A DNA stretch of 64,000 nt from Sedimentisphaerales bacterium (GTDB lineage: Bacteria > Planctomycetota > Phycisphaerae > Sedimentisphaerales > Anaerobacaceae), in contig OY970194.1 in the NCBI GenBank assembly GCA_963708075.1, positions 5,568,001-5,632,000 of the forward strand. The letters are read 5' to 3'. The translations under genes were made by a program, and so were the position numbers. Below, one piece after another: positions 14,153-43,403 of this stretch (position 1 is its first letter; each line of letters starts with the position of its first letter). Under the pieces are notes generated by a model. The model was not told where the DNA came from, did no database searches, and saw only the letters and a list, made by a program, of their open reading frames with translations.

Positions 14153-14169
14153 TGCATGACTCCGGTCTT

Positions 14170-14253
14170 CAGTTCCCAGTTGTCGGTTCCCAGTCGTCAG
14201 TTACGGGTCCCCCCGCCGTCCTGCTGACAACCGACAACTGTCAACTGACAACT
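14170..14253. repeat. Inverted heptamer-repeat hairpin (CAGTTNN)n...(NNAACTG)n
   Basis: Left arm CAGTTCC CAGTTGT CGGTTCC CAGTCGT CAGTTAC; right arm ACAACCG ACAACTG TCAACTG ACAACT. Confidence 0.9.
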
Positions 14254-14918
14254 CATTCCTTCTCCATCCAGCCGTCTTTGAGCCGGATGATTCGTTTGCT
14301 GTAGGCGGCGTACTTGTCGTTGTGCGTGACCTGGATGATGGTCGTGCCCTCGCGATTGAGCTTCTTGAACAGGTCCATGATGGCCTCGCCCTGGGTCGAA
14401 TGGAGGTTGCCGGTGGGCTCATCCGCCAAGAGGAGTTTCGGGCTGGCGATCACGGCCCGCGCGACGCCGACGAGCTGCTGCTGGCCGCCGGAGAGCTGGC
14501 TGGGATACAGGTCCTTCTTGCCGACGATGCCGAAGCGGTCGAGCGAGTCGCAGACGATCGAGGCCCGCTCGGAGGCCTTGATGTTCCGGTAGGACAGCGG
14601 TACATCCAGGTTCTCGTACACTGTCAGGGTATCGAGCAGATTGAAGTTCTGAAACACAAAGCCGATGTACTGCTTGTTCAGGGCCAGTCGGTCCTTGGGC
14701 TTGAGCGTGTGGACGGCGTGCTCGAAGAGATAGTACTCGCCTCCCCAGTCGCCGTCCAGCATGCCGAGGATGTTCAGCAGCGTGGTCTTGCCCGCCGCCG
14801 AGGGCCCCATGAAGGTGACGAAGTCGCCCTCCGGGATCTCCAGGTTGATCTGCCGCAGGACGTAGTTCTTGCCCGCCCGCGTTTCGTAGCATTTCTCGAT
14901 GTTGCGCAGTTGAATCAT
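14253..14918 (-). CDS. ABC transporter ATP-binding protein (MacB/LolD-type)
   Basis: Walker [10 protein letters not shown], signature LSGGQQQ, Walker [15 protein letters not shown] switch. Confidence 0.95.
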
Positions 14919-14922
14919 AGCA

Positions 14923-15190
14923 TAGTTCTCAGTTCACAGTTGTCAGTTCTCAGTTCCCGTTGGAATGATGGAACAATGGAATACTGGATTGGTGGAAAGA
15001 GGGGCGAGGCCGTTTGTAGTGTGCCCGCAAGGGCATCAACTCGTGTCGCGGGCGTCCCGCCCACGATTTGAGGACGGGACGTCCTCGATACGAAAAGAAG
15101 AAAACGCCTTGCGGCGTCACTACGAACGCGTCTGGCGCATTACCTACGCCACCCATTATCCCAGCGTTCCAGCATTCCATTATTCCAATC
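14923..15190. repeat. Lone heptamer arm plus an octamer-repeat hairpin enclosing two short palindromes
   Basis: (AGTTNNC)n at 14923-14960; (TGGAANNN)n at 14961-14997 inverted against (NNNTTCCA)n at 15152-15188; internal palindromes near 15044-15090 and 15104-15118. Confidence 0.8.
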
Positions 15191-17597: not shown

Positions 17598-17680
17598 CAG
17601 TTCTCAGTTCTCGGTTGTCAGTTCCCAGTCGTCAGTTACGGGTCCCCCGCCGCCTTGCTGACAACCGACGACTGGCAACT
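17598..17680. repeat. Inverted heptamer-repeat hairpin
   Basis: Six CAGTTNN-type units, a loop GGGTCCCCCGCCG shared with the 14170 copy, then a NNAACTG arm. Confidence 0.9.
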
Positions 17681-18353: not shown

Positions 18354-18422
18354 CAGTTGTCGGTTCTCAGTTGTCGGTTATGGCCTCTCCTGCCGGCAAC
18401 TGACAACTGTGGACTGGCTACT
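18354..18422. repeat. Inverted heptamer-repeat hairpin
   Basis: CAGTTGT CGGTTCT CAGTTGT CGGTTA ... GCAACTG ACAACTG TGGACTG GCTACT. Confidence 0.88.
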
Positions 18423-18426
18423 CATC

Positions 18427-23468: not shown

Positions 23469-25034
23469 TCATCGCTTCTCCAGACGGTAATTGCACCATG
23501 TGGGCACCTCGCGAGTGAAATCGAGTGTTCCTCCGCCCTTGGTGATGAACACACCCGGCTTGACCTCCTGGAGGTTCTCATTCGACGAGTGCAGCCCGTT
23601 CACCATGTCAAAGAACTTCGATTCGGTCACGCACAGGGTGCCGTCCTTTTCAAAGACGGTGATGCGCGGCGTATATTCGTCGCGACCCATCACCAGAATC
23701 GCCACATGAGCCCACCATTCGAGCTTGTATTCACTGAATCGCAGACTGTGAGTCCCGCAGTATTGCCTCCATTCGGGCTTGTAAGGGGTCGGCTTGTGAT
23801 CGGCCCAGCCCCACCATGTGCCGACGCAAGGATGATAGTCGGGCTCGTCCCGCGGGAAGCGCTTCTCCACAATCCTCCCTTTGACCAGCTTGTCTGTCAG
23901 CGCCAGGGCCAGGTTCCCCATGGCGGAATTCGGCAGCTTGTTGGTCAGGACGACAGCGCCCACGCCGTACTCGGGATACCAGTGCAGGAATGATAGAAAG
24001 CCAAATCCTGCACCGTCGTGCCAGAGCAGAGTCTCGGTCCGCTCGGGCGATCGCTTGTCAATAAGGATTCCCTGGCCATAGTACACGTTTGGGTCGGTGC
24101 GGATGATCCCCGCAGGTGCATGGATGGTCTCCATCAAGGACCGGTCGACAACACTGCGGCCGTCGAGCGTCCCTTGACTGATGTGCAATTGAACGAGGCG
24201 GGCGATGTCTCTGGCCGTGCTGTAAATGCTGCCTGCTCCGAGTGCCGGGTACACCACGGGCACCTTCGCTACGCCCATCATGTGCCCGATCGCGCGTTCG
24301 GAGTTGCCGAGGATCTCCTGCCGATCCGCCGTGGTGTTCGACATTCCCAGGGGAGTGAAGAGCCGCTCTTTGAGATAGTCCTTGAACGACTTGCCACTGG
24401 CCACCCGGATGGTGTACGCCGCCAGATCATACGATGCGTTGCCGAGATATACGCTGCTGCCCACCGGGCAGATGAGCCAACTGTCGTAGAGACTCTTGAT
24501 ATGATCTTCGAAGGAAGTCGTTGAAGCCGGCTCGAAATTATTGCCCAGGCTCATTTCCACAGGAATCCCGGCCGTGCAGTTGAGCAGCCGTCTCAGCGTG
24601 ATCTTCTGTTCCGGATGGTCTTCGTACCGGCTGTTGACCTTGAAGTCCGGCAGGTAGGTCGTGATCGGCTCGTCCAGCTTCACCAGTCCATCCTGGACGG
24701 CGAGCATGACAGCCGTGGCCGTGATCAGCTTGGACATCCCGCAGATCATGAAAGGCGTATCCGGCGTCACGGCCTTCTTCTTGCCGCCCGTGTAGCCGTA
24801 GCCTTCCGTCCAAACGATTCCTTTATCATCGACCAGGGCGATTGCGGCGCCGGGGAGATCGCCCTTATCCAGGATCCCCGGCACCGATGCGCGGAATTCA
24901 TCAATCACGGCTGTGATCTTCGGGTCCAGACCCTCTCTCTTGTAGCCGCCCGTCCCGGGAGCGGCCGCCCGCACTGGGCAGAGTGAGCCGGCCAGGAATT
25001 CCACTACAAGAATGGATAGGACAATGACTCGCAT
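23469..25034 (-). CDS. Secreted beta-lactamase-related (serine hydrolase fold) protein with degenerate catalytic motifs
   Basis: Signal peptide MRVIVLSILVV; LPGAAIALV, VTPDTPF, KLDEPITTYLP, LFTPLGM, GSIYSTARDIAR. SxxK reads GMSK and YSN reads LGN. Confidence 0.88.
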   Translation of the reverse strand: MRVIVLSILVVEFLAGSLCPVRAAAPGTGGYKREGLDPKITAVIDEFRASVPGILDKGDLPGAAIALVDDKGIVWTEGYGYTGGKKKAVTPDTPFMICGMSKLITATAVMLAVQDGLVKLDEPITTYLPDFKVNSRYEDHPEQKITLRRLLNCTAGIPVEMSLGNNFEPASTTSFEDHIKSLYDSWLICPVGSSVYLGNASYDLAAYTIRVASGKSFKDYLKERLFTPLGMSNTTADRQEILGNSERAIGHMMGVAKVPVVYPALGAGSIYSTARDIARLVQLHISQGTLDGRSVVDRSLMETIHAPAGIIRTDPNVYYGQGILIDKRSPERTETLLWHDGAGFGFLSFLHWYPEYGVGAVVLTNKLPNSAMGNLALALTDKLVKGRIVEKRFPRDEPDYHPCVGTWWGWADHKPTPYKPEWRQYCGTHSLRFSEYKLEWWAHVAILVMGRDEYTPRITVFEKDGTLCVTESKFFDMVNGLHSSNENLQEVKPGVFITKGGGTLDFTREVPTWCNYRLEKR

Positions 25035-25047
25035 AACACTCTGTCTC

Positions 25048-25125
25048 CAGTTCTCAGTTGTCAGTTCCCGGTTGTCAGTCCTCAGTTGCCGGCAACTGAC
25101 AACTGTCAACTGGGAACTGTGAACT
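25048..25125. repeat. Inverted heptamer-repeat hairpin
   Basis: Six CAGTTNN-type units, centre CAGTTGC-CG-GCAACTG, five NNAACTG-type units. Confidence 0.92.
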
Positions 25126-25129
25126 CCTT

Positions 25130-27556
25130 CTATTCACACCTCAGCGCCACCATCGGATCGACTCTGGCTGCACGCCGGGCGGGGAGATAACACGCCACAA
25201 GGCCGATCAGACTGAGCAGCAGAGCTCCCGCCGCTAATGCAAGCGGATCCATTGGGCTGACGCCGTAAAGCATGCTGCGCAAGACTCGTGTCAAAGCGCA
25301 CGCGCCGCCCAAGCCCAACCCGATCCCAATCGCCACAAGTGTCATCCCCTGGCGCAGCACCAGCCGCACCACGCCAAGTCGTGCGACGCCGAGCGCCATG
25401 CGGATTCCAATCTCGCGTTGGCGCAAGGCAACGGAATAAGCCAGGATGGCGTAAACGCCCACGCCGGCCAGCAGCAATCCCACCGCTCCGAAGACGCCGA
25501 GGTAGCACATGTAGGTCCGATGCGCTCGCGTGCTGTCGTAAAGAGTATCCTCAACCACCGACACAGAGGGTTTGTGCAGTCCAGGTCCCGCGGTTTTCAC
25601 TTCTGCCAAGAGAGCTTTCACCAATCCTTCCGGTTCAGTACGCGTTCGTACAAAGAACTCGTAGTACCCAAAAATGAAGCCCACTCGCTGCGGCCGGTAG
25701 AACGTCGGGCTGATGGCGTCCCCCAAGCCCCAGGTCTGGAAATCGGCGACAACGCCCACGACCTCAAAGGTGCTGTGGTCGTTGGCGTCTGTCGGGCGGA
25801 TGGTCTTGCCGATCGCGTTCTCCCCCGGCCAGCAACGCCGGGCGAGGGTCTCGTTGACCACGACCGCCGTGGCGTTGGCACCCGCGTCCTGGTCGTCGAA
25901 ATACCGCCCGCGAAGCAGCGGCGTCCGCATGGCCTTGAAGGCATCAGCCGTCCCGATCCCAGAAGCGCCCGCACATAACTCCACTGACTCCTCTTGTCCG
26001 GTGATGGCATACTTTCGCAGTCCCGGGTAGCCGATGAAGATACCTACCGCCTCGACTCCGGGCACAGCGATGAGTCGCCGCTGAACCTCCGCCACCAGGA
26101 GGTTCTTCGCTTCAAGCTTCTGGTATTTCTTCACCAGGTCCGGCTCAATCACAACATTTACCAGGTTCCTCGGATCGAGGCCGGGGTCGCTCCGGAGCAG
26201 ATGAGCCACGCTTTGGATCATCAGACCGGCTCCCGCGAGCAACACCATCGCCAGAGAGACTTCAAGAACGACCAGCCCTCGGCGATACAAGTTTCTCAAG
26301 GTGCCTGGCGTCGCCTGCACGCCGGTTTGCTTGAGCGCGTTCGCCACGGGTCGGGTCGCCCCGTACCATGCAGGGAAGGTCCCGGAGATCAGACCTGAGG
26401 TGACCGCAACCAACACGGAGTAGCTCAGCACCTGCCAATCGAGTTCCATCGCTCGCAAACGTGATAGATAAAGCGGCACCAGCCGCTCCATGAGGCCGAA
26501 GCTCCAGTAGGTCAGGCCTATGCCTACCGCCGCGCCGGCCAGGGCCGGCAGCAAACTTTCCAGCAATAGTTGCCACAGCAGCCGCAACCGACTGGCCCCC
26601 AGCGCACCCCGGATGGCCAATTCATGCTGGCGTGCTTCGGCCCGGGCCAAGTTCAGATTCGCTACGTTCGCACAGGCGATCAGCAAGACAAAGATCATCG
26701 CCCCCACAAAACCAGGAATGGTCTTCTGCACGTCGGCGCCGGCGAATACCTCCCGTACGGGTCGCAAGGGAAGAGAAGCGTAGCCGTACCCAGATTTGCG
26801 GTGCTCATCCTCGTACCTCTGCGCGAGCACATCCAGCACTGCCTGCGCCTGCTTCATGGACACGCCGCCAGCAAGTCTCGCAATGATTTCGGAGTCGAAC
26901 GAGAATCGAGAGCCCTTCGGGTCTTTGTCCGCTGGCTTCACCTCCGGGTCACCCGCTGGAAGCCAAAAATCCGCATACTGGGGGTATCTGAAATTAGGCG
27001 GCATCACGCCGATGACCGTGTAATACTGATTCTGCACGCGGAGCGATTTCCCTATCCAACCACGGTCACCGCCCAATCGGTTCTTCCAGAACGTGTGACT
27101 GAGCACAATAACCGGAGGAGCGCCAGGCCGATCTTCATCTGGGGCGAACGGCCGCCCAAGCCAGGGCCTTTCGCTCCAAAACGAGAAGAAGTTCGGAGAG
27201 ACGCGGGCACCATTGATAGTCTCACTCCACTCGCCATTCTGCCAACGCAGGTCGACCCAGGGGTTAGTTCTGATTAGATCAGCGAAGCAGTCCCGGTGGG
27301 CGCGTAACTCCTGGACGATCATGGGGGTGACACCATACATGTAGTCGTTCTTCTCCCTGTTGAAGGCGCGAATCTGGACGAGCCGATCCTGCTTGGCCAC
27401 CGGCACGGGATTGAACCACAGCGCATTGACTCCACTGAAGATCGCCGTGCTTGCCCCGATGCCGAGTGCGAATGTAAGCACGGCCACGGCCGTGAAGCCC
27501 GGCGTATGGGCCAACATTCGAAGAGTATATTTGAGGTCTTGCCACAGTGTTCTCAT
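25130..27556 (-). CDS. ABC permease, duplicated MacB/FtsX (ADOP-like)
   Basis: 808 aa; MRTLWQDLKYTLRML...PARRAARVDPMVALRCE; TGATG overlap with the upstream ATPase. Confidence 0.92.
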   Translation of the reverse strand: MRTLWQDLKYTLRMLAHTPGFTAVAVLTFALGIGASTAIFSGVNALWFNPVPVAKQDRLVQIRAFNREKNDYMYGVTPMIVQELRAHRDCFADLIRTNPWVDLRWQNGEWSETINGARVSPNFFSFWSERPWLGRPFAPDEDRPGAPPVIVLSHTFWKNRLGGDRGWIGKSLRVQNQYYTVIGVMPPNFRYPQYADFWLPAGDPEVKPADKDPKGSRFSFDSEIIARLAGGVSMKQAQAVLDVLAQRYEDEHRKSGYGYASLPLRPVREVFAGADVQKTIPGFVGAMIFVLLIACANVANLNLARAEARQHELAIRGALGASRLRLLWQLLLESLLPALAGAAVGIGLTYWSFGLMERLVPLYLSRLRAMELDWQVLSYSVLVAVTSGLISGTFPAWYGATRPVANALKQTGVQATPGTLRNLYRRGLVVLEVSLAMVLLAGAGLMIQSVAHLLRSDPGLDPRNLVNVVIEPDLVKKYQKLEAKNLLVAEVQRRLIAVPGVEAVGIFIGYPGLRKYAITGQEESVELCAGASGIGTADAFKAMRTPLLRGRYFDDQDAGANATAVVVNETLARRCWPGENAIGKTIRPTDANDHSTFEVVGVVADFQTWGLGDAISPTFYRPQRVGFIFGYYEFFVRTRTEPEGLVKALLAEVKTAGPGLHKPSVSVVEDTLYDSTRAHRTYMCYLGVFGAVGLLLAGVGVYAILAYSVALRQREIGIRMALGVARLGVVRLVLRQGMTLVAIGIGLGLGGACALTRVLRSMLYGVSPMDPLALAAGALLLSLIGLVACYLPARRAARVDPMVALRCE

Positions 27557-28305
27557 CAGGCTACCTCGAAGCCGTGCTGCTTGAGCTCTGTGGTTTCCTG
27601 TTGTTTACGCGAGGCCTCTTCCTCTTCCACGATCCGGCCGTCGAACAGATGGACGGTCCGCTGGGCGCTGCGAGCGTAGCGCGGGTCGTGCGTCACCATG
27701 CAGATCGTCGCGCCCTCCCGGTGCAACTCGCTGAGCAAGCCCATGACCGCCTCGCCATTGTTGGAGTCGAGGTTTCCCGTGGGCTCGTCGGCCAGCAGGA
27801 TGGACGGGCGCCCGACCACCGCACGGGCGACCGCCACCCTTTGCTGCTGACCCCCGGACAGTTGGGCCGGGTAATGTTTCATTCGGTGGGACATCCCCAC
27901 ACGTTCCAGCGCCTCCTGTGCCCGCTGTTTTCGCTCTGCCGAGGGCATGCCCCGGTACGTCAGGGGCAGCTCCACGTTCTCATAGACGGTCAGGTCGCCG
28001 ATCAGGTTGAAGCTCTGGAAGATGAAGCCGACCTGGCGGTTGCGGATGCGGGCCCGCTGCGAAGCGGACAGGCTCGCCACCGGCTCACCATTGAGCCAAT
28101 ATTCGCCCTCGGTCGGCGAATCCAGCAGGCCGAGGATGGCCATGAACGTCGATTTCCCGCAGCCGGAAGGCCCGGCGATGGAGACGTACTCGCCCTGGGC
28201 GATGCTCAGGTGAATCCCCGCCAGCGCGTGGGTCTCCACTTCTTCGGTGATAAAGACCTTGTGCAGGTTCTCGACGCGGATGAGGGAATCGTTGGATTGA
28301 GCCAT
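27556..28305 (-). CDS. ABC transporter ATP-binding protein (MacB/LolD-type)
   Basis: [39 protein letters not shown]. Confidence 0.95.
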   Translation of the reverse strand: MAQSNDSLIRVENLHKVFITEEVETHALAGIHLSIAQGEYVSIAGPSGCGKSTFMAILGLLDSPTEGEYWLNGEPVASLSASQRARIRNRQVGFIFQSFNLIGDLTVYENVELPLTYRGMPSAERKQRAQEALERVGMSHRMKHYPAQLSGGQQQRVAVARAVVGRPSILLADEPTGNLDSNNGEAVMGLLSELHREGATICMVTHDPRYARSAQRTVHLFDGRIVEEEEASRKQQETTELKQHGFEVA

Positions 28306-28333: not shown

Positions 28334-28804
28334 TAGTTGTCAGTTCACAGTTCTCAGTTCACAGTTGTCAGTCCGCAGACCTGCCTTTAGGCGGTCGGGG
28401 CTGGCGCAGCGATTTCCGCAGACCGTTGATCATTCTCCCGACCTCTTCCGTCTGGGCAAAGAAGCGATGGGCCACTTCCTCACCTATGTACCCGATTCGT
28501 TTTGCGATCTCTATATGAGTCTCCAATTCGGCCACGGAGCCATGAGCGATCGACAGGTGGTGGAGGAACTCTTTTCTGTGCTGGCGAGCCTGGCCTTCGG
28601 CAATATTGGCGGGGACCGACACGGCTGCCCTCTGGATCTGGCCCGTCAGACCATACTGCTCACTCGCTGGGAATCTCCGCGTAGTCTCGTAGCAGCGCAC
28701 CACGACATCCATGCTCTTCCTCCAAACCTCCAAATCCCTATAGCTGTTTCCTCTCACAGCTTTTCTCCTTCTTCTGCCAACTGTCAACTGTCCACTGCCA
28801 ACTA
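28334..28804. mobile_element. Candidate element: heptamer-repeat inverted arms enclosing a four-helix-bundle gene
   Basis: (CAGTTNN)n arm at 28334-28373 and (NNAACTG)n arm at 28774-28804 flank CDS 28368..28757. Mobility is inferred, not shown. Confidence 0.5.
28368..28757 (-). CDS. Four-helix-bundle protein (23S rRNA IVP family, Avd-like fold)
   Basis: SYRDLEVWRKSM...FPASEQYGLTGQIQRAAVSVPANIAEG...FLHHLSIAHGSVAELET; GTG start at 28757 after AAGGAG. Confidence 0.93.
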   Translation of the reverse strand: MRGNSYRDLEVWRKSMDVVVRCYETTRRFPASEQYGLTGQIQRAAVSVPANIAEGQARQHRKEFLHHLSIAHGSVAELETHIEIAKRIGYIGEEVAHRFFAQTEEVGRMINGLRKSLRQPRPPKGRSAD

Positions 28805-30064
28805 CTTCAATCTGATCCTGTCACAGCTATCCCATTGGGACATGTCGCTCAATATGATCTCGTCACCCACTTGCAGGCCGTCGAGGACCTCGATTGTACT
28901 GACGGAGCTGCGGCCGAACTGTGCCCGGGTCCGCACCGCGTGCTTGCCGCCCTCGATGACCTTGAACAGCTCCGTGATGCCCTCGGAGGAGGCATAGACC
29001 GGCCGGCCGACGTTGAGGACATCGTCCAGTCGCTCGATCTCGATCGTGCCGACGACCGACAGGTCCGGCCGGGCCCCTTCCGGCAGCGTGCCCTTCAGCG
29101 AGACATCCACCGTGACGTTCCCATCCATAACAGTCGGGTCGAGCCGGGAAACCTTTCCTGAAACCGTCCCATGATGCGTATCGACGACAGCCGCCAGGCC
29201 GATTCGCACGTCTCTGGCCTGGGCCTCGGGGATCTTCAGTTGTGCCTTGAGCTGCCGGGGATTGGTGATCTTGGCCAGGATCGTGCCGGGGGAGATGGCT
29301 TGACCGGGCTCGATCTTGTTCGCGACCTGGGCCAGCACGCCGTTGGTGCCCGCCTTCACTTTCAGGGAGTCCATCTCATTGCACTTGAGCCTGTAGCGCG
29401 ATTCCGCCTGCTCCACGGCCGCCTGGGCCTCGGCCAATTGCGCGGGCATCGTCTGCGTGCGGTACATGTCCAGACGCTTTTTCCTGATTTCAAGGAGCTG
29501 CGCCGATTGTGTGACGCGCGACTTCGAGAGCGTCAGTTGCAGGTCCGAGATCAGGTCGCTCTCGTACTGCTTCTGGTCCACTTCCGCCCGGAGCTTGTTC
29601 TCCTCATGATTGGCCTCCGTCAGGGCCAGGTCCGCCTGCATCCCCAGCAACTGATCGTCCAGTTGGGCCGTCTGCGAGATCAGTTTCGATTGCGCCGAGT
29701 TCCACTGGGATTTGGCGTCCAGCAGCTCCAGCTCCAGCTCGGGATTATTCAGCTCCAGGAGCAGGGTGTTGGGCTCAACGATGCTGCCCGGCTCGATGAG
29801 GATTCGTGTGACTCGCCCTTTGACCTCCGCGGGAATCCACAGAATGTCCTCCGAGACGAGGGTGCCGACGCCGCGAACCTCCCGAAGCATGGGCCCGCGT
29901 TTGACGGTGTCCAGCCACAGGGTCCGGCGGTCCACCCCCGGCGCCGCCGGCTCCAGACGGGACACGCCCACGGTGACAACAGCCACCACGATCAGGCCCG
30001 TCGTGCCGATCAGGCCCCGTCGAATCATCTTCATGCGTTTCGCTGATTTTCGTGGTATGTCCAT
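28802..30064 (-). CDS. Efflux periplasmic adaptor (MacA/HlyD-type membrane fusion protein)
   Basis: MDIPR start, one TM helix, VKRGPMLREVRGVGTL, coiled coil, GLQVGDEIILSD. Confidence 0.92.
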   Translation of the reverse strand: MDIPRKSAKRMKMIRRGLIGTTGLIVVAVVTVGVSRLEPAAPGVDRRTLWLDTVKRGPMLREVRGVGTLVSEDILWIPAEVKGRVTRILIEPGSIVEPNTLLLELNNPELELELLDAKSQWNSAQSKLISQTAQLDDQLLGMQADLALTEANHEENKLRAEVDQKQYESDLISDLQLTLSKSRVTQSAQLLEIRKKRLDMYRTQTMPAQLAEAQAAVEQAESRYRLKCNEMDSLKVKAGTNGVLAQVANKIEPGQAISPGTILAKITNPRQLKAQLKIPEAQARDVRIGLAAVVDTHHGTVSGKVSRLDPTVMDGNVTVDVSLKGTLPEGARPDLSVVGTIEIERLDDVLNVGRPVYASSEGITELFKVIEGGKHAVRTRAQFGRSSVSTIEVLDGLQVGDEIILSDMSQWDSCDRIRLK

Positions 30065-30093: not shown

Positions 30094-30111
30094 ACCGGAT
30101 TGCCCTCTGTC

Positions 30112-30213
30112 ATTTACGATTTATGATTCACGAATTACGATTTGTGGACTGGGAGCGGGCTCCTCGCCGGCGCCGGACCGCAAATCATCAATCATCCATC
30201 ATAAATCGTAAAT
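30112..30213. repeat. Inverted heptamer-repeat hairpin, second sequence family (GATTTAC/GTAAATC)
   Basis: ATTTACG ATTTATG ATTCACG AATTACG ATTTG ... CAAAT CATCAAT CATCCAT CATAAAT CGTAAAT. Confidence 0.85.
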
Positions 30214-30221
30214 CAATCCGC

Positions 30222-30284: not shown

Positions 30285-33200
30285 TCACAGCGACAATAAG
30301 AACGCTGTCAGATCCTTCAGCTCCGCTGTGCTGAGGGTTGAGGTCTTGCCGTGGCGGTCGCCCGGATTGAATTTGGTGAGCACTTCTTCGAGCGTGCCCG
30401 CCCGGCCATCGTGGAGGTAGGGGCGCTGCGCCAGAGTTCAACCAGGCTTGGGGCATCGAATGCCTCACCGGCCTCCCGACCGGTCCCGGTGCCGACGTCG
30501 CAGGCCTTGAGAGACGTGTAAAGGGGTGGTGCGTGACACTCCATGCAGCCGGCCTTCTCGAAGACGCGCTTTCCTCTTTCAGCCGTCTGCTTGTCGGCTG
30601 CATACGGGCTCGGCAGCGGCTCAAGAGACTTCAAGTAGGCGTCAATGGCAGCGGCGTCGGCCTCCGGGCGCAACACGAACTGGATGTGGCGCAGGCCCGC
30701 ACGCACGGCGGTTTCCGCTGTCTCGCGGACGCCCAGGCTCATCACCGGCGGCGTGCGATGCGCCCACAACATGCTCCTGGTATTCTTGGGCGTGCCCAGG
30801 CCGTCGTTGAGCAGGTCCCAATTCAGGCCGTCCGCTCTCGCGTCGGGGTGACAACTGGCGCAGCTTTGCCATCGCTGGAAGCACAAGTCCGCATCATGGA
30901 AGAGCATTTCCCCGCGACGTACCTCGGTCGGCTCCGGCGTCCGTCCCAGTGAGACTGATCCGACCCTGTTCTTCTCTTCCGGCTTCAGTTGAACGGTGGC
31001 TACGGAATCAGAGAAGTACTCGGCGGCGTAGAGGATCTGCTCTGCGACCGCGATGCCCCGCGGTCCCTTGCCTTGCAGCCGAACGCGCCGGCGCAGATCA
31101 CCGAGAAACGTCAGATCGCTCGATACGTTCTGCGAGTTCGCGCCGAGCTTTCGATGCAGCCCCGGCCGGTCGATGATGCTGACCTCGTGTGTGCCCGCGT
31201 GGCTCACGCACAGCCATTGGCCGTTACCGGTGCAGGCTATGTCCCACGGATTGGCGGCCCCCTGGTCCACGTCGTCGAGCAAGACCGTGTTAAGCCATTT
31301 GAGGCCGGCCACGTCGATGATGCTCAGGGCGCTGGTGTTCATCCAGCCCCGATCCACCTGCGTGGTGGGAAGCTGATAATGGGCCAGCGTGTGGGCAACA
31401 TATGCATAGCGGCCGTCCGGCGACACACAGATTCCGCGGACGGAGGTGCTGCCGTTGGGCAGACCGATGCGGGCCGCGATTTTCAAGTCGGTGGTGCTGA
31501 CGGCAGTGACTTCAGCGGCGACAACCGGGCCGGTAGCAGGTCCGGCGGGCAGGAGGCTTGCGACCAGCACAAATTGTCCGTCCGGCGTGCGCGCTACTGC
31601 GACAGGTTCCCGACCGACAGGCAACTCGCCTTTGATCTTTTGTGTCGTCAGATCGATCGCCAGCAGGCGCGAGCGGTATCGGTCACACACGAAGAGCGTA
31701 GTCCCGTCCTTGCTGAGCACCGGCGCCGTCGGACTGTGCCCGGCGGCAATCCGCGCACGTACGACGCCGGTCTGAGGATCGATGACCAGCACAACTCCCT
31801 GCGGCAGACCCCCCGTGACATAGAGACTCTTGCCGTCCGGGGAGATCGCAATACCCGACGGCGCTTCCGGCAGGGGGATTCTCCGAGATACGACGGAGAT
31901 CGCCCGATCGATGACGAGTACTTGGCGTCCTGTGGCCGCGACGACGTAGAATTCGGTTCCCTCGTTGTTCGCTGCCAGCGCTGATGGTGAGAGGAAGGCA
32001 GGGCTCGCGTGCTTACCTTCTTCCCTTCCTACCTTCTTACCTTCATCACCGGCGTGTGCTGCCAGGCCTGCGGTCTGCGCGGGCCATTCGGCAAGGCTAC
32101 GTCGCTCCAGCTCCTCCATGCGCCGGCGTTTTTCGAGGAAGTGCCTGTACTTCTGTAGGTCCTCGTCGTTCCACTGGCTTGCCTCTGTGTAGTCGCCGCA
32201 GAAGGGGACTTGAAGATCGATCCAGCAGGCGAGCTTCTCAATCTCCTCCGGCGCAAGTCGTGCGTCGTAGTGGCCATCCGCCAACAGGGACAACAACCGG
32301 CTGCGGGCCGCCCCGGCGGCGTACGGCGTAAGCAGCGGGGGCACTGATTGGGCCCCGACCCAATTCACCAGACCGTCCGTTGTGCCTGCGAGATAACGAT
32401 TGCCTTCCAGCGTCTTCTCTGTCGCTTGAACGAGTGCCAGGTAGCTTGTGCTCCACTGCCTCTTGGCGAGGTCTTCGACCACGGGCGTGCCGAGCAGGCA
32501 GGGGGCGGCCTTCCCGGTCGCAGGGGCCTTGCCGTCGTGACAACGGATGCAATGGCGGTCGAGGACAGGCTGGATTTCGCGCGAGAAGCTGAAACCTCGC
32601 GGGGGACCATGAAAAGGAATCAGGTCCTGCGGGCCCGCCCGGAACGCCAGGCTCGGCGCGGGTTTGACGGCCGGTGTGTCGTTCTTCGACTCATGACACC
32701 CGATGCACGAGGCGTTCTCACCCGGCTGCAGGGTCATCCAGCTCCGCATCGTCTGCACCGCGTACCCGCGGGCGTCGATGGCCTGGAAGTAGAGAGGCAT
32801 GGCGCGGGCACCGTGAAGAACGCCGAGCCGTCAGGGTGAACGGTGGCGTCGCCGAGCACGACCTTCACGTCCCAGCTCCCATTGCCTATAGCCACCGGCG
32901 TGCAAGCCAGCGCATCGCCCGCCGGGCCGGCGTTGTAGTTCCAGCCGACGCCGGCGGCGCGATACTCAAGGCCGATCACGCGGATCTTCTTCACTGTGCC
33001 GCGAGCGATACCGGTTAGTCCGGGGCCTGCGTAGATGTCTTGCAGATAGCAGGTGCCGGTGGTCTTCTCATAATTCACGACGCTGGGTCGGACGAGGGGG
33101 CGCGGCCGTGCCGTCAAAGGTATAGGCTGGCCGCAGGAGAAATCCGGATCAGCCGCCAGCAACTCCCGGCGGCCATTCGCGGCGATCCAGTACAGCTTGA

Positions 33201-34806
33201 AGAATGTGGGAGAGCGGGACCAGCCCAGGGGTGTATAGGCCACCACGAATTCAGATTCAGAGAGTGGATAGGGATACTGAAACAGATCGCCGTCCTGTCC
33301 GTAATAGTCGATGCGCTCGGCAGGCGTCTCGCGGACCGGGGCGATCAATTGGGTGCCGGCGTTTTCCTGCCGGCCCTTGGCAGGGTCCACGATTCCCAGC
33401 TTGCCGACCTGGCGCGTGTGGTGGCCTGAGAAGATGGCGACCACTTTCTGCGTGCCGGGAATGCCGCGGGCGTGCAGCAGCGAGGTGGGAAACCAGGAAT
33501 TGTTCGCGTAAAACTCGGTCTGGCCCGTGCCGTCGGGATTCATCTGGAACAGGCCCTGGACAAAGAGCTGGCCGCGGTCCTGGTATTCCCAGCGGGTATA
33601 GACGACCCGCCCGTCCGGCATCACCATGGGGTAGTTGTCGTGGACTTGATCGAATGTCAGGCGGCGCATGTAGCGACCGTCACGGCTGCACGTGTACAGG
33701 TTGCTGACCTCCGTCCACCAGCAATCCACCGTCTGAACGCAGCGAGTGGAGTTGAACAGAATGTCGTCGTTCGGCAGGTAGACGCACTCATAATCCGCAA
33801 AGCCAAGCCCTTCGGTCAACTGCTTCACCGAGCCGTCCGCGACGCTCATCTCGTACAGATGGTAATCGTCCTCGCGGTCGGACTTCTTCCAGGCGAAGAG
33901 CACATGCCGTCCGTCCCACGACACGTCCGGGTCCCGGATGACGCCGTTGGAGTCCTCGATCAGTGTTCGTACGCGGGCCCCGGTTTCTTCGAGCTCAAGC
34001 CGGCACAGCGCTGCCCCCGGCTCGAACTGCCGCTCATGCTGGGCGTCGGATTGGCCCTCGGTATAGGCGTAGTGCGAGCCGCCCAGGATACAATGCTTCG
34101 TGAAGATCCATCGCGGATATTGCTGGCGCAGGTTTTGCAGTCGCCTGTCGCGGCGCAATTCCGCGGCGCGGAAGTAGAGTTCGAGCCATTGCTTCGGTTC
34201 GGCGGGTGTGGACCGACTCACGAGCCGGTCAAACTCAGCCTGCAAATCCCGGCCGGTCGCTCCCAGCGCCGCCAGCACGTTGGCCGTCGCCTTCTGCGCC
34301 ACGACCGACACGGTGGACGCCGACAACCATGGGCCGAAGTCCGGCCCCGCATCCTGGAGGCACCAATCCCACGGCACCGGGAACTCCCGCTCGCCCCGGA
34401 TGGAGAACTCCTCGGCCGCAGCGGTGAACGTCTCGCTGTTCGGGTCGAGCGGCGCCATCTCGGTCTGCGCTCCGAGCACAGCCGCCTGCCATGCCTTGGC
34501 CTGGTCGGACAGTGACGCCGCATCGGCTGCCGGGCTCGTGCCTGGACACCAGCAGAGCCAGAGAGCCCCGATTGCAGTAAGCAAGATGGACTTTGACCAG
34601 CCTCGTAAAGATGAGAGGCCTGGGTGGCAGCGGCAAGCGGAGTCTTCGGAGCTTGCCGATGGTGTTGACGCACATCCCGCGAGCCATCGGCAAGCTGCGC
34701 TTGCCGCTGCCACCCGCCATGAGTCTTGAATGCGGAACAGTGTACACGTACCTTGACGCGGGTGGATGGGCTTTAGTCCATGCGGACGCCTTGCAGCATC
34801 GTTCAT
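30285..34806 (-). CDS. HzsA-like beta-propeller/c-type haem protein fused to a YVTN beta-propeller and a di-haem cytochrome c domain; two single-base deletions (~32802, ~30421)
   Basis: ORFs 32734..34806 and 30317..32800 join at FTVPA-x-MPLYFQAIDARGYAVQTMRSW. Four CxxCH motifs (CIGCH, CIRCH, CASCH, CMECH). Restoring one C gives SAPYLHDGRA...LTAFLLSL* ending at 30285; 4522+2 nt = 1507 aa plus stop. Confidence 0.8.
34622..34715. repeat. Inverted doublet of a REP-like unit GGGTGGCAGCGGCAAGC..GCTTGCCGATGG
   Basis: Copies at 34622-34662 and 34684-34715 (inverted); the family recurs at 53039-53070, 57868-57901, 63306-63337 and 63351-63386. Confidence 0.85.
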
Positions 34807-35939
34807 TACTTTCTCACCTCATTGCCAAGGGGCCGCTCGAAGTACTCGCGCCATACCGCGTAGGCGGGGCGGGCATTGCCCTGCTCATCGACAAGCCCGC
34901 AATCGCGCCACGCCATGAACAGCTCCGGCGCGGTCGCTTTGATTTTGTCCCAGAGTGCATCGTAGTCGCGGTGGATGAACAGCACGACAAACTCGAAGCG
35001 GCGTTGCTCGGCCAGCGCCAGCAATGTCCGCACGTAGGCGGCCTGCTTTTCGGGCGTGCCGTTGATCACGATCTTGCTTTGTGGAAAGACCAGCCGGTCG
35101 CCGGCCTCGTTGGTCTCGACCATGGCGTAGGGCTTGTCAAACCGGTCGAACTTCTCCGTCATCCACGCCAGCGCCTTCTCGGCGGGTTCGCCCGCCAGGA
35201 AGGGATAATAACTGACCGCGACGAAATCGTTGAACGGCATCAACTCCTCCCAGGTGGCCAGCATCGGCCCGCGATCTTTGATCATATTGTGCAGTGTGAA
35301 GGACGCGAAGATCGGCAGATTCGGATGCTCCTTCTTCAGCTCGCCATAAACGTAGCGATGGAGCTCGACATACGCCCGCCACTTCTTGACGCCGGAGTTG
35401 AAGATCTCGTTCACTTCGATGCCGATAGCCAGGTAGTCAGGCTTGAAGAAGTCGATGCAACGACGGCAATAGGTCAGGAACGCCCGCTTGACGAGAGGAT
35501 CGTCGTACGATTTGCCTTTCAGTTCCGGCGGCAGCGGCGTAGCGCCCTTGTCGGGCAGCTTGAGATCGCCGCGACCCGGTGACACGGCCAGATATACCTT
35601 CGCCCCCGGCGGTTTCATGGAGCGCTTGGACTCGTGCTCACTCACGAGTTCCTTCGGAAAAGGCACATCCTGCAACGCCTCGGCCCAAGGCACGCCTTCA
35701 ATATGGTGGGCGATGAGATCAGCGTTGTCACGTACGAACTGCCGGGTCTGCTCGACCGCCTCGATGCTGATATCGTGCGGGAACGCCGTGAACCCCATGC
35801 GAAAGGGCCGTAACCGCTCCGCTTCCGCACTCAGGTCAATCGCCATGCCCAGGAGCAACACCAACACAGCCACGGCTAACCCGTAGTCGCTCCTCCGCAT
35901 TCGGATACCACACGCGATGTTGTGTAGTGGCGTTCCCAT
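34806..35939 (-). CDS. Secreted glycoside-hydrolase-like TIM-barrel protein
   Basis: Hydrophobic signal; PDYLAIGIEVNE, FVAVSYYP, KPYAMVETN, DCGLVD..GNARPA resemble clan GH-A motifs; family not assigned. Confidence 0.65.
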   Translation of the reverse strand: MGTPLHNIACGIRMRRSDYGLAVAVLVLLLGMAIDLSAEAERLRPFRMGFTAFPHDISIEAVEQTRQFVRDNADLIAHHIEGVPWAEALQDVPFPKELVSEHESKRSMKPPGAKVYLAVSPGRGDLKLPDKGATPLPPELKGKSYDDPLVKRAFLTYCRRCIDFFKPDYLAIGIEVNEIFNSGVKKWRAYVELHRYVYGELKKEHPNLPIFASFTLHNMIKDRGPMLATWEELMPFNDFVAVSYYPFLAGEPAEKALAWMTEKFDRFDKPYAMVETNEAGDRLVFPQSKIVINGTPEKQAAYVRTLLALAEQRRFEFVVLFIHRDYDALWDKIKATAPELFMAWRDCGLVDEQGNARPAYAVWREYFERPLGNEVRK

Positions 35940-38356: not shown

Positions 38357-38443
38357 GTTGCGATTTACCAGTTGCGATTTACGATTGTTGGGATTCGAGC
38401 CGTCACGAACAAGCCTGAAATCTCAAATCTCAAATCGCGATTC
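38357..38443. repeat. Degenerate heptamer-repeat hairpin between regulator and kinase
   Basis: CGATTTA-type units on the left, (AAATCTC)n on the right. Confidence 0.6.
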
Positions 38444-38445
38444 CC

Positions 38446-39855
38446 CTATCCAATCCCATACTTCTCCAACCGCCGGTACAAGGCGCCGCGGCTGAGGCCG
38501 AGGGCCTCCGCGGCCTTGCTGATGTCGCCCTGGGAACGCGCCAGCGCATTCTGGATCATCATCTGCTCGACCTGCTCCAGGGTCATGTTCTCGATCTTGC
38601 CGCCGGTCTCGGGCCTGGCCTCCAGGCCCAGATCGCTGGGCTGTACGGTGCCGCCGTGAGCCATCAGGACCGCCCGCTCGATGGTGTGATCGAGCTCTCG
38701 CACGTTCCCGGGCCAGGAGTAATCCAGCAGCGCCTGCATCGCCGCTGGGTCCAGACCGGCAAGCTCCTTGCGGTACCGTCCCGCGTGCCTGGTGAGGAAA
38801 TGAGCGGCCAGTAAGGGGACATCTTCCTTTCGCTCTCGCAAGGGCGGGACGCGAATTTCCACCGTCTTCAGGCGGTACAGCAGGTCCTGCCGGAAGCGTG
38901 CCTCGGCGACCTCCTTGCCAACGTCGGCGTTGGTGGCCGACAGAATTCGAACGTCGACGCGGTGGGTTTTCGAAGACCCGACCGGCTCGAACTCGCCGCT
39001 TTCGAGCACGCGGAGCAGCTTCGATTGCAGGTTAGCCGGGATGCTGGCGATCTCGTCAAGGAACAGTGTCCCGCCGTCGGCCAGCTTGAACCGCCCGATC
39101 CGGTCCGATTTGGCGTCGGTGAAGGCGCCAGCGACGTGGCCGAACAACTCGCTCTCGAAAAGGCTGTCCGGGATGCTCGCGGTGTTCACGGTCACGAGGG
39201 ATTTGTCCTTGCGGGTCGATGCGGCGTGCAGAGCCTGGGCGACAATCCCCTTGCCCGCCCCGTTTTCCCCAGTTATCAGCACGTTCGCCTGCGACGGCCC
39301 GATCCGAGCGATGGCTTCAAGCACCGGCCGCATCGCGCGGGCCTCGGCGATCAGTAGCGGCTGGGCCTCGCTTCGAAGCAGGAAATTTTCCTGCTCAAGT
39401 TGTCGCCCCTTGCGCAGGGCCCGGCCCAGCTCCACCTGCGTGCGCAAAACAGCGAGCAGCCGCTCATTCTTCCACGGCTTGGTCACGAAGTCGCGGGCCC
39501 CGCGTTGCATCGCCTCCACGGCCAGCTCCACGCTGCTCCAGGCCGTCATCACCACCACTGGAAGCGTGCTGTCGATTTGTTGGATCCGGGCCAGCACGTT
39601 AAGCCCCTCCTGCCCCGACGTATTGCCCCTCGCGTAGTTCATGTCCATCAGGACGACGTCCACGTCCTGCCGCCGGATCGCCTCGATGACCGCCTCCGCC
39701 GAGCCGACGGTCTCGATCTGGTAGCCCTCGCCCTTGAGGAGCAGCCGCAGCGCCTTCAGCACGCCCAACTGGTCGTCCGCCACGAGAATCCGCGGCGACA
39801 CCGGCCCCGCCCGGCTCATCCCGACATCCACGCCACCCTGTTCATCTATCGCCAT
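38446..39855 (-). CDS. Sigma-54-dependent response regulator (NtrC family bEBP)
   Basis: Receiver ILVADD/LMDMN; GENGAGKG; ESELFGHVAGAFTDA; LFLDEI; WPGNVREL; Fis-type HTH. Start could be a later ATG (MSRAG). Confidence 0.95.
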   Translation of the reverse strand: MAIDEQGGVDVGMSRAGPVSPRILVADDQLGVLKALRLLLKGEGYQIETVGSAEAVIEAIRRQDVDVVLMDMNYARGNTSGQEGLNVLARIQQIDSTLPVVVMTAWSSVELAVEAMQRGARDFVTKPWKNERLLAVLRTQVELGRALRKGRQLEQENFLLRSEAQPLLIAEARAMRPVLEAIARIGPSQANVLITGENGAGKGIVAQALHAASTRKDKSLVTVNTASIPDSLFESELFGHVAGAFTDAKSDRIGRFKLADGGTLFLDEIASIPANLQSKLLRVLESGEFEPVGSSKTHRVDVRILSATNADVGKEVAEARFRQDLLYRLKTVEIRVPPLRERKEDVPLLAAHFLTRHAGRYRKELAGLDPAAMQALLDYSWPGNVRELDHTIERAVLMAHGGTVQPSDLGLEARPETGGKIENMTLEQVEQMMIQNALARSQGDISKAAEALGLSRGALYRRLEKYGIG

Positions 39856-41789: not shown

Positions 41790-41945
41790 CTGCATTTTCA
41801 TTCCGCATTCCGCAATCATCATTCCGCATTGCGCGTCCCGCGCCGGCTCCGCATTCCGCAATCCGAAATCCGCAATCGCCCGGCCCCGCCGTGCCCCCAC
41901 CGACTACCGACTACCGGCTACCGACTACCGGCTACCGACTACCGC
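41790..41945. repeat. Heptamer tandem repeats (ATTCCGC)n and (CGACTAC)n
   Basis: CATTCCG CATTCCG CAATC... and CGACTAC CGACTAC CGGCTAC CGACTAC CGGCTAC CGACTAC read directly. Confidence 0.85.
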
Positions 41946-42892
41946 CTTTTCCCCTTGCAGGCTTCGCCTGCACTCGCCATAATACCGTCAGACATGCACC
42001 TCTGATGAAGCTGCGACAAGTTGGTTGGTGGCCCATACGGGCCGGACAGATGTGGTGAGGCCAAAGAAGACGCGGGGATTTGCGGAAAGTGAAATGTGTA
42101 GGTGCGACCCCCGGTCCTCCCGAGAAGTTGGTTGGCGGCCCCCATGGGCCGGACAGATGTAGTGAGGCTGAAAGATGACGCGGAGATTTGCAGAAAGTGA
42201 AATGTGTAGGTGTGACTCTCAACTTGCTCGGTGGCTTTTTTGTTGGTGCCGCCCCATTGTTTGAAGAAGAAGGGGGCTTTGGCGGCTATGCACTGGTCGC
42301 GGATGTCGATTACCCACTCGTGCGGCATGGGGCGAGCGCCGGGGCCGGACTCGCCGCCTAAGATGGCCCAGCCGATATCGGTGAGGTCGATGTTGGGGAT
42401 GGGACTCAACACGGGTTCGAGCGAGAGGAACTTCACCGCCGCGCCGGTTTGTCTCAGGTGGTCGATGCGGTAGGTGTAGTCGCTGTTCTCGACGGTGACG
42501 CCCATCCAGACGTTGTCGGGCCATGTCAGGCGGGGGCTGAGCTCTTTCAGTCTCTCGGAGCGTTTTGTCAGGATCTGGAAACGGTGCTGGTGGGCGCGGC
42601 GCATCACGTCGAAGACCTGCTGGATGAAGTCGAAGGGTACGTCTTTGTGGAACAGGTCGCTCATCGAGTTGACGAAGATCGAGCGGGGCTGTCGCCAGTG
42701 CAGCGGCAATTCGAGCATGTGCGCGTGAAGGGTGAGGCGGAACCCGTTGCGGTAGTTCGGCTGGCCCATCGCCTGCAGCCGGCGGGCCATCCGCTTGGCG
42801 TAGCAGTTCTGGCAGCCGGGGCTGACCTTTGTGCAGCCGGTCACCGGGTTCCATGTACATTCGGTCCATTCGATTTTCGAGTTTGCAGCCAT
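41939..42892 (-). CDS. DUF5131 / phage Gp37Gp68 family protein (radical-SAM-like) with aberrant C-terminus
   Basis: [64 protein letters not shown]. Confidence 0.92.
42014..42228. repeat. ~107-bp tandem duplication
   Basis: 42014-42120 and 42121-42228 share AAGTTGGTTGG, GGGCCGGACAGATGT and GAAAGTGAAATGTGTAGGTG. Confidence 0.9.
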
Positions 42893-43403
42893 GCACCTGC
42901 CTTACATGAGTCTGTCCTATTGTACGCGCAAATGAGTGAGCAATCAACTATACGAAGAAAATCGGAGGCCAGGTCAGCCTCAGGTTAAGCTCCGGTGGAC
43001 ATCTTGTCTGCCGGAGGAACAGGACGGGATCGTTTGTTTCCGGGGTGAAGAAGGGCAGGCAATCAGTTGTCAGTTCACGGTTGTTAGTTCTCAGTTGACG
43101 GATTTCCTCTCCGTGACCTCAGTGCCCCCCGCCTGCGCGAGGGCAAGCCTCCGTGGTTAGAGACGCATTTCATTGTTCCTAACCTCTGTGCCACAAAGGC
43201 GTTACGGTATGGGCGGAAAAATTTGATGATTTTTGAACTATTGTATGGACAATGGATCATAGCAGGGCTATGATCATGGTTGATGTATGAGGGTTGATGG
43301 TTGCTGTGTCAAATGAGCGAGGACCTGTTCAACGGCATAAATCAAACATCAAACATCAAACATCAAAAATCAACCATCACACTTGATTTGAGAGGGGCGA
43401 ATC

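Follow-up and report, generated by a model that had tools for sequence, protein, structure and literature searches.

A four-helix-bundle gene between inverted heptamer arms: a candidate mobile cassette of operon junctions in Sedimentisphaerales

A small four-helix-bundle gene separates the genes for a periplasmic adaptor (MFP) and an ABC ATPase in a Sedimentisphaerales bacterium. An earlier note on this DNA suggested that the gene and its flanking repeats are the filled form of an element that stands empty at other junctions nearby. Do gene and repeats form one unit, and does that unit move, or is it a processing or regulatory site of the mRNA? We analyzed the window, the whole stretch of 64,000 nucleotides, together with the host genome and its relatives. 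Rereading the sequence confirmed the gene inside inverted 7-mer arms at 28334..28804. It also confirmed that one arm starts from the MFP stop TAG, in which the first unit of TAGTTGG CAGTGGA CAGTTGA CAGTTGG CAG opens, and that the other overlaps the gene's own stop, a TGA, ending 28 nt ahead of the ATPase ATG.

Table 1. Positions, within the window, of the cassette, its host genes and the related gene-less arms
Feature	Coordinates	Strand	Basis or remark
MFP (periplasmic adaptor), upstream host gene	28802..30064	-	TIGR01730, 89 bits, just below cut-off
5' arm: four heptamers + CAG, consensus CRGTTSN	28774..28804	-	sequence
AGGAG, Shine-Dalgarno-like, in loop	28765..28769	-	sequence; 7 nt upstream of GTG
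TIGR02436 / 23S-IVP / S23p four-helix-bundle gene	28368..28757	-	profile 131.5 bits, model, sequence
3' arm: five heptamers + CTA, reverse complement of 5' unit	28334..28371	-	sequence
ABC ATPase, downstream host gene	27556..28305	-	profile search
Gene-less CAGTT hairpin, permease / serine hydrolase junction	25048..25126		sequence pattern
Gene-less CAGTT hairpin, permease / ATPase junction	18354..18423		sequence pattern
Gene-less CAGTT hairpin, ATPase / permease junction	17598..17679		duplication partner of 14163-14254
Gene-less CAGTT hairpin, ATPase / permease junction	14163..14254		sequence pattern
Lone CAGTT 3' arm just ahead of ATPase start	14923..14961	-	sequence pattern

The heptamer pattern is far above chance. 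A three-unit pattern matches 39 times in the window versus a mean of 0.13 in 100 shuffles, and genome-wide there are 621 arrays of period 7 and 4-8 of periods 4, 5 and 11. Nor is the cassette an assembly artefact, because contigs from two public DNA runs cover both arms (the 5' arm with 1 difference, the 3' arm with 0) and further assemblies show an equal gene-plus-arms layout. These runs may come from the source campaign of the assembly, and no contig in four runs spans the cassette. Genes of the genome were called with a home-made model, and some ORFs of the window were missed. Several genes at 30317-35939 of the window and in locus L294, leuA and leuC too, appear to be split by frameshifts, which suggests indel errors in the single-contig assembly.

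The gene would encode 129 amino acids from a likely GTG start at 28757 to a TGA stop at 28370-28368; the listed ORF of 139 amino acids starts within the 5' arm and is hence longer. The orthologue in genome G021 has ATG where this gene has GTG. In profile searches the product scored 131.5 bits against TIGR02436 (cut-off 24) and 37 against the Avd model (cut-off 80). Its predicted structure (pLDDT 93.7) has four helices and superposes on Xcc0516 (2GSC) with a TM of 0.87, an rmsd of 0.9 and 44% identity; for Avd (4DWL), the TM is 0.76 and the identity 12%. The product is a member of TIGR02436/PF05635 with a predicted Xcc0516-like four-helix fold. According to PMC4990558, 2GSC is a homopentamer, and from the 44% identity we infer that our protein would be one as well. 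The protein is basic (pI ~9.9), the median pI of the family being 9.1, and the family alignment contains near-invariant polar residues. The four-helix gene is the sole ORF within the cassette loop, and neither in the loop nor beside it did we find a transposase or another catalytic partner.

The empty arms that the earlier note placed at four other junctions were found, at 14163, 17598, 18354 and 25048; the first two count as one duplication pair, because they share a loop and both follow duplicated ATPase genes. These four gene-less hairpins and a lone arm all lie downstream of the gene, in its own ABC-exporter cluster. Within 25 kb of the gene there are 13 CAGTT arrays, its own two arms included, versus 0.6 expected. 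Among five genes of the host genome, only 28368..28757 had such a local excess of arms, part of which reflects gene duplication. A blastn search of the CAGTT empties of the host genome found no coding remnant.

Other repeat families share the window and the genome. The lone 3' arm follows a hairpin of 8-mers (TGGAATAA type) with a REP-like insert inside, and arms of this type stand empty in the window at ~14965-15190. Hairpins or arms of other heptamer families lie at other junctions (38358-38451, 30101-30218, 43274-43386 and 41794-41956), the first being the regulator/kinase site that is filled in genome G007. The serine hydrolase at 23469-25109, within the ABC permease array, is beta-lactamase/AmpH-like and far below every class C cut-off. 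By eye, all 6 TIGR02436 genes and 1 GxxExxY gene of the host genome are inverted-armed, each with its own unit. At G000:C1:2761832-2762173 and 6460740-6460952 the host genome carries the GxxExxY gene and a longer TIGR02436 variant, both with inverted arms of roughly 9-10 bases. A 4-5 kb island beside a 16S rRNA gene (G000:C1:1187760-1193700), which contains the genome's sole RT match, is enclosed by mirror-ordered half-arm stacks of many repeat families and REP-like units.

Are members of this protein family flanked by arms more often than other genes? The family sample comprised 184 loci (30 and 100 from the 150 matches listed, 53 from a second search, and L015), with short fragments and 25 unlisted matches excluded; 174 remained after removal of short hits and duplicates. 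As controls we drew 250 from the 1338 small genes predicted in the host genome. Because a strict scan for period-7 pairing overlooked degenerate arms, recovering just one family gene among long loops, an arm score took its place, with a value of at least 10 taken as inverted 7-mer arms. Among the matches listed, 133 of 174 family loci reached this score versus 3 of 250 controls, and the top-scoring control turned out to be a family member itself. Of the 41 low scorers, many bear clade-typical arms of 8-mers instead, and some are armless. Several protein clades, with loci such as L168, L174, L138, L142, L055 and L047 among others, have 8-mer rather than 7-mer arms.

In the protein tree every clade has its own repeat unit, and dozens of units each track a clade. 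Among pairs of genes that have no flanking gene in common, the units differed by no more than one base in 8 of 8 pairs with at least 80% protein identity, in 12 of 15 at 70-80%, and in 1% of 5573 below 40%. The unit follows the clade even at unrelated sites, implying that the arms move with the gene. Recognition of its own arms by the protein is suggested only through this correlation of unit with protein clade. By strict count, 71 of 119 5' arms and 86 of 119 3' arms consist of 4 or 5 units, which would fit a pentamer only loosely. The junction at G000:C1:1129550-1130050 is filled at 19 genus loci by two different gene clades. This site looks like a junction of SRP RNA and dnaX.

The history of the MFP/ATPase junction can be followed in 16 relatives whose MFP is orthologous. 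The junction is filled in 3 of them, carries a hairpin of another repeat family in 6 and a REP-like hairpin in 3, is plain in 3 and has been rearranged in 1. Six further records are filled with the CAGTT gene type, one of them (L071) internally deleted. Orthologous junctions differ between filled, plain and other-hairpin states, but a clean empty hairpin of the CAGTT unit occurs at MFP/ATPase in none of the 16 relatives; the corresponding state does occur for a sister cassette at leuC/leuD. Several non-filled junctions retain scraps of outer CAGTT arms round a newer hairpin, and on the MFP tree the CAGTT cassette is best read as ancestral here and lost several times. In genome G019 the junction holds a different gene (57% identical) with TAGTCGG arms, and TAGTCGG hairpins occur at several other junctions of the operon. 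The G019 MFP groups with that of G021, which has the CAGTT gene type; at some point another gene, with arms of another kind, seems to have taken the cassette's place. Genome G013 has empty GxxExxY-type arms at this junction, nested within a heptamer hairpin. Near-identical cassettes labelled Pirellulales were considered as a transfer from class to class, a reading that we rejected because their MFP genes group with Sedimentisphaerales records. Genes at the same junction differ by a dN of 0.06-0.13 at a dS of 1.06-1.58, with one pair saturated, values that indicate purifying selection on the cassette gene.

Related genes also occur at different junctions. The G019 gene has its nearest relative (83%) in G007, at the regulator/kinase junction, 10 kb off in gene order. 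Mapped on the host genome, relocations among clusters of at least 72% identity comprise five local ones (within 10 kb) and three distant. By a limit of ~10 kb, 12 of 28 ordered pairs with 70% identity or more were local, as were 2 of the 44 pairs in the 55-70% range; below 50%, none of 200 pairs was. These counts are not independent, because the genomes are kin. These maps show the apparent relocations to be mostly local.

Genes that are 84-87% identical stand at three junctions of one leucine operon: the cassette is full at leuA/leuC in G002, at leuC/leuD in four other genomes, and in G006 behind leuB. Of 21 leuC/leuD loci fetched, 19 were readable: the site is filled in 4, carries the same arms without a gene in 6, is bare in 1, has another insert in 5 and keeps remnants in 3; leuD/leuB could be read in just 1 of the 21 loci. 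At leuA/leuC in G014, an empty hairpin matches the first 104 nt of a full copy 1470 nt downstream at 85%, and keeps ~22 leading codons joined directly to the 3' arm. The alignment shows that at least one empty hairpin, that of this G014 sister cassette, is by all appearances a full copy with an internal deletion, and the simplest reading would be a local copy that later lost its middle. In the host genome, the leuA/leuC site that is occupied by the four-helix cassette in G002 contains an ORF of more than 300 codons behind a degenerate arm-like run (L294:2600-3660; G000:C1:4714600-4715660).

Across 18 genomes the regulator/kinase junction takes several forms: 3 have a stop/start overlap, 4 are plain, 10 carry an empty hairpin (of three unit families) and 1 is filled. 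Direct repeats of 5 nt accompany 2 of the 11 occupied junctions, a hint of target-site duplication.

Two further suggestions of the earlier note, that filled and empty arms are forms of one element and that this may be a mobile unit, are supported by the arm enrichment, the states of orthologous sites, the G014 deletion derivative and the relocations, namely the G019/G007 pair, the leucine operon and the test of ~10-kb neighborhoods. Across the genomes, the gene and its two inverted arms apparently behave as one unit at the stop/start junctions of operons, where this unit has been acquired, lost, exchanged for another or moved. Mobile behavior has good support.

Near the gene we counted 20 cognate arrays in 0.96 Mb, versus 15 in 3.37 Mb round the remaining family members of those genomes (p=0.005, or p=0.011 when this ABC operon is left out), and within 10 kb of the gene they are about four to five times denser than round other family genes. 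Of 59 density comparisons, 12 were higher, 8 lower and 39 ties. When the 24 genus genomes are ranked by arrays per Mb, carriers of the gene come 1+2, 2+3, 1+4 and 1 for four unit families; ranks are mixed for a fifth, and the TGCGT pattern has too few matches to rank. G006, in which the cognate gene was not found, ranks first for CAGTT arrays, and the host genome carries TAGTCGG and GGGGTCA arrays, for which cognate genes were not found there. The carrier G011 has 0 matches of its own 8-mer pattern. Abundant arrays where the cognate gene was not found imply that arrays outlive the gene, or that the assemblies miss it.

These data lead us to favor, with a probability of roughly 0.55, a mobile cassette that lacks a transposase, copies itself mostly locally and encodes a predicted ring-shaped protein that likely binds the arms. 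The cassette would copy itself mostly into neighboring stop/start junctions, the copying step being our preference over rearrangement alone. Full copies would decay by internal deletion into gene-less hairpins, and these may multiply by mobilization in trans. The protein would bind the arms and recruit a catalytic partner, acting as a specificity adaptor for an enzyme of the host or of foreign origin; the near-invariant polar residues could form the site for that partner, or an active site of its own. The stem would draw the upstream stop and the downstream start together, and by closing this distance it may allow the host to tolerate the insert.

A bolder version, which we offer tentatively as having rather less than an even chance, is that such cassettes represent a novel class of mobile DNA that encodes neither a transposase nor an integrase nor an RT. 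A pentamer would read units of 7 or 8 bases, one per subunit and one type per clade, and would drive copying into stop/start junctions, both of its own cassette, with a preference for cis, and, in trans, of hairpins that have lost the gene. The rRNA intervening sequence (IVS) would then be one such landing, and the heptamer repeats of bacteria its debris.

The arms might alternatively serve the RNA. If they pair in the transcript, RNase III could excise the cassette as an intervening sequence of the mRNA, and the locus would mainly be an RNA processing site, a reading we regard as unlikely. The two arms (duplex energy -34.5 kcal/mol) are predicted to form a stem that a mismatch interrupts roughly once in seven bases, and within 580 nt of context the pairing probability is ~0.8-1.0 at most positions. 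Of 31 empties, 27 have a 5' arm that starts no more than 21 nt from the upstream stop; at filled junctions, 84 of 121 start within 60 nt. In Coxiella, heptamers stand at the 5' stem of the IVS, and RNase III cuts at the first of them (PMC4990558). However, the longest uninterrupted helix at 28334..28804 is ~7 bp, and the median across 119 loci 12, versus 28 bp for the stem of that IVS; the folding z of the whole region is just -1.64. G-U versus A-C mismatches on the sense strand number 34:22 in empties and 141:115 in filled copies, neither ratio being significant. On balance, the mismatch and pairing tests speak neither for nor against processing. Hairpins showed no enrichment in co-directional gaps (31 of 39 versus a background of 73%, p=0.24). 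Processing alone would leave both the relocations and the match of unit to clade unexplained, and it can operate within a mobile cassette.

It is also unlikely that the protein is simply a resident RNA-binding regulator, a host factor for translation or mRNA stability whose binding sites are the arms over operon junctions. Purifying selection and the basic pI of the family would suit such a role, as would long residence at some sites: one junction is held by 19 loci, a very long stay. The 3' arms end just ahead of start codons, like the TAACTGA repeats, for which PMC4679880 proposes a regulatory role or a mobile repeat-binding protein. A regulator would nevertheless sit uneasily with a junction that holds four unit families, the gene, or nothing in sister genomes, with arrays that lack a cognate gene in many genomes, and with empties that can be deletion products.

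We consider it quite improbable that the protein plays no part in movement, with the arms being slippage-prone repeats and the gene passing between junctions through arm-to-arm recombination or the action of an unrelated enzyme, for instance a RAYT. The host genome does have 13 matches to Y1 transposases, 0 of which fall within the window, and REP-like hairpins lie inside arms or replace them; recombination between neighboring arms would yield local moves, and GxxExxY and unknown ORFs also occur at such junctions. Passive shuffling would, on the other hand, explain neither the purifying selection on the protein, nor dozens of units that each track a protein clade, nor the arrival of arrays at bare stop/start overlaps. 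Finally, the fold match to Avd might point to the avd gene of a DGR remnant or to a reverse-transcriptase partner, but this is very improbable indeed, since the Avd score is below cut-off, the host genome's only RT match lies 4.4 Mb off with no avd-like gene called beside it, 7 of 24 genus genomes, including cassette carriers that are 97-99% complete, have no RT match, and no fixed RT partner is evident; an RT might still act in trans.

If the mobile cassette is the right explanation, a very large family of proteins with no assigned function would gain a role, and both ORF-bearing rRNA intervening sequences and the heptamer arrays found between genes in many bacteria would gain an origin. Because each protein clade pairs with its own unit, a binding code can be tested directly, and the pattern of local hopping narrows the mechanism to a step that acts in cis. 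The cassette is widespread and seems to be undescribed in print: the literature searched, largely outside subscription journals, yielded nothing that joins the TIGR02436/PF05635 family to junction hairpins. The suggestion of an undescribed system accordingly stands for the cassette as a whole, but not for all its parts, as the heptamer stem of Coxiella (PMC4990558) and the TAACTGA arrays (PMC4679880) are already in print separately.

One close known arrangement is the 23S rRNA IVS of Coxiella and Leptospira, in which an S23p family protein is encoded in the loop of a terminal stem, with heptamers at the Coxiella stem (PMC4990558). Our cassette likewise has terminal inverted repeats that form a predicted stem round an ORF. 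Unlike the IVS, it lies between protein genes for an MFP and an ATPase, and 0 of the 174 family loci among the matches listed is flanked by rRNA; its arms form interrupted stems, and its gene has its own ribosome site and is under purifying selection. The 23S rRNA gene of the host is uninterrupted, its 2930 nt in an Rfam search leaving no room for an IVS. The TAACTGA repeats of Beggiatoaceae, Cyanobacteria and Bacteroidetes, as PMC4679880 describes them, are 2-6 heptamers that end just before start codons, with a unit that resembles the 3' arm of the cassette. They are treated there, however, as direct repeats with an unknown binder, and the terms 'intervening', 'four helix', 'S23' and 'pentamer' are absent from the main text of that paper.

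REPIN-RAYT systems resemble the cassette in combining many gene-less hairpins with a rare gene, inherited mostly vertically and flanked by the same repeats. They differ in that the cassette gene is a four-helix bundle and not a HUH (Y1) transposase, and its arms are tandem 7- or 8-mers with their own unit for each protein clade. The Avd protein of DGRs, according to 10.1101/2023.10.23.563531, forms a pentameric barrel with a positive charge and resembles S23 proteins. Its fold is common with that of the cassette protein, whereas the identity is low, the score is below the family cut-off, and no RT stands beside the cassette gene. MITEs and the internal-deletion derivatives of insertion sequences (IS) are empty forms that arise by internal deletion and keep both ends. 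The cassette has similar derivatives, at leuA/leuC in the G014 sister cassette and in L071 at MFP/ATPase, but its full form is without a transposase and has no firm target-site duplication. Overall, by the features compared, the cassette belongs neither with rRNA IVSs nor with DGRs or REPIN-RAYT systems; by analogy, it is IVS-like in its layout and apparently like a pair of IS and MITE in its life cycle.
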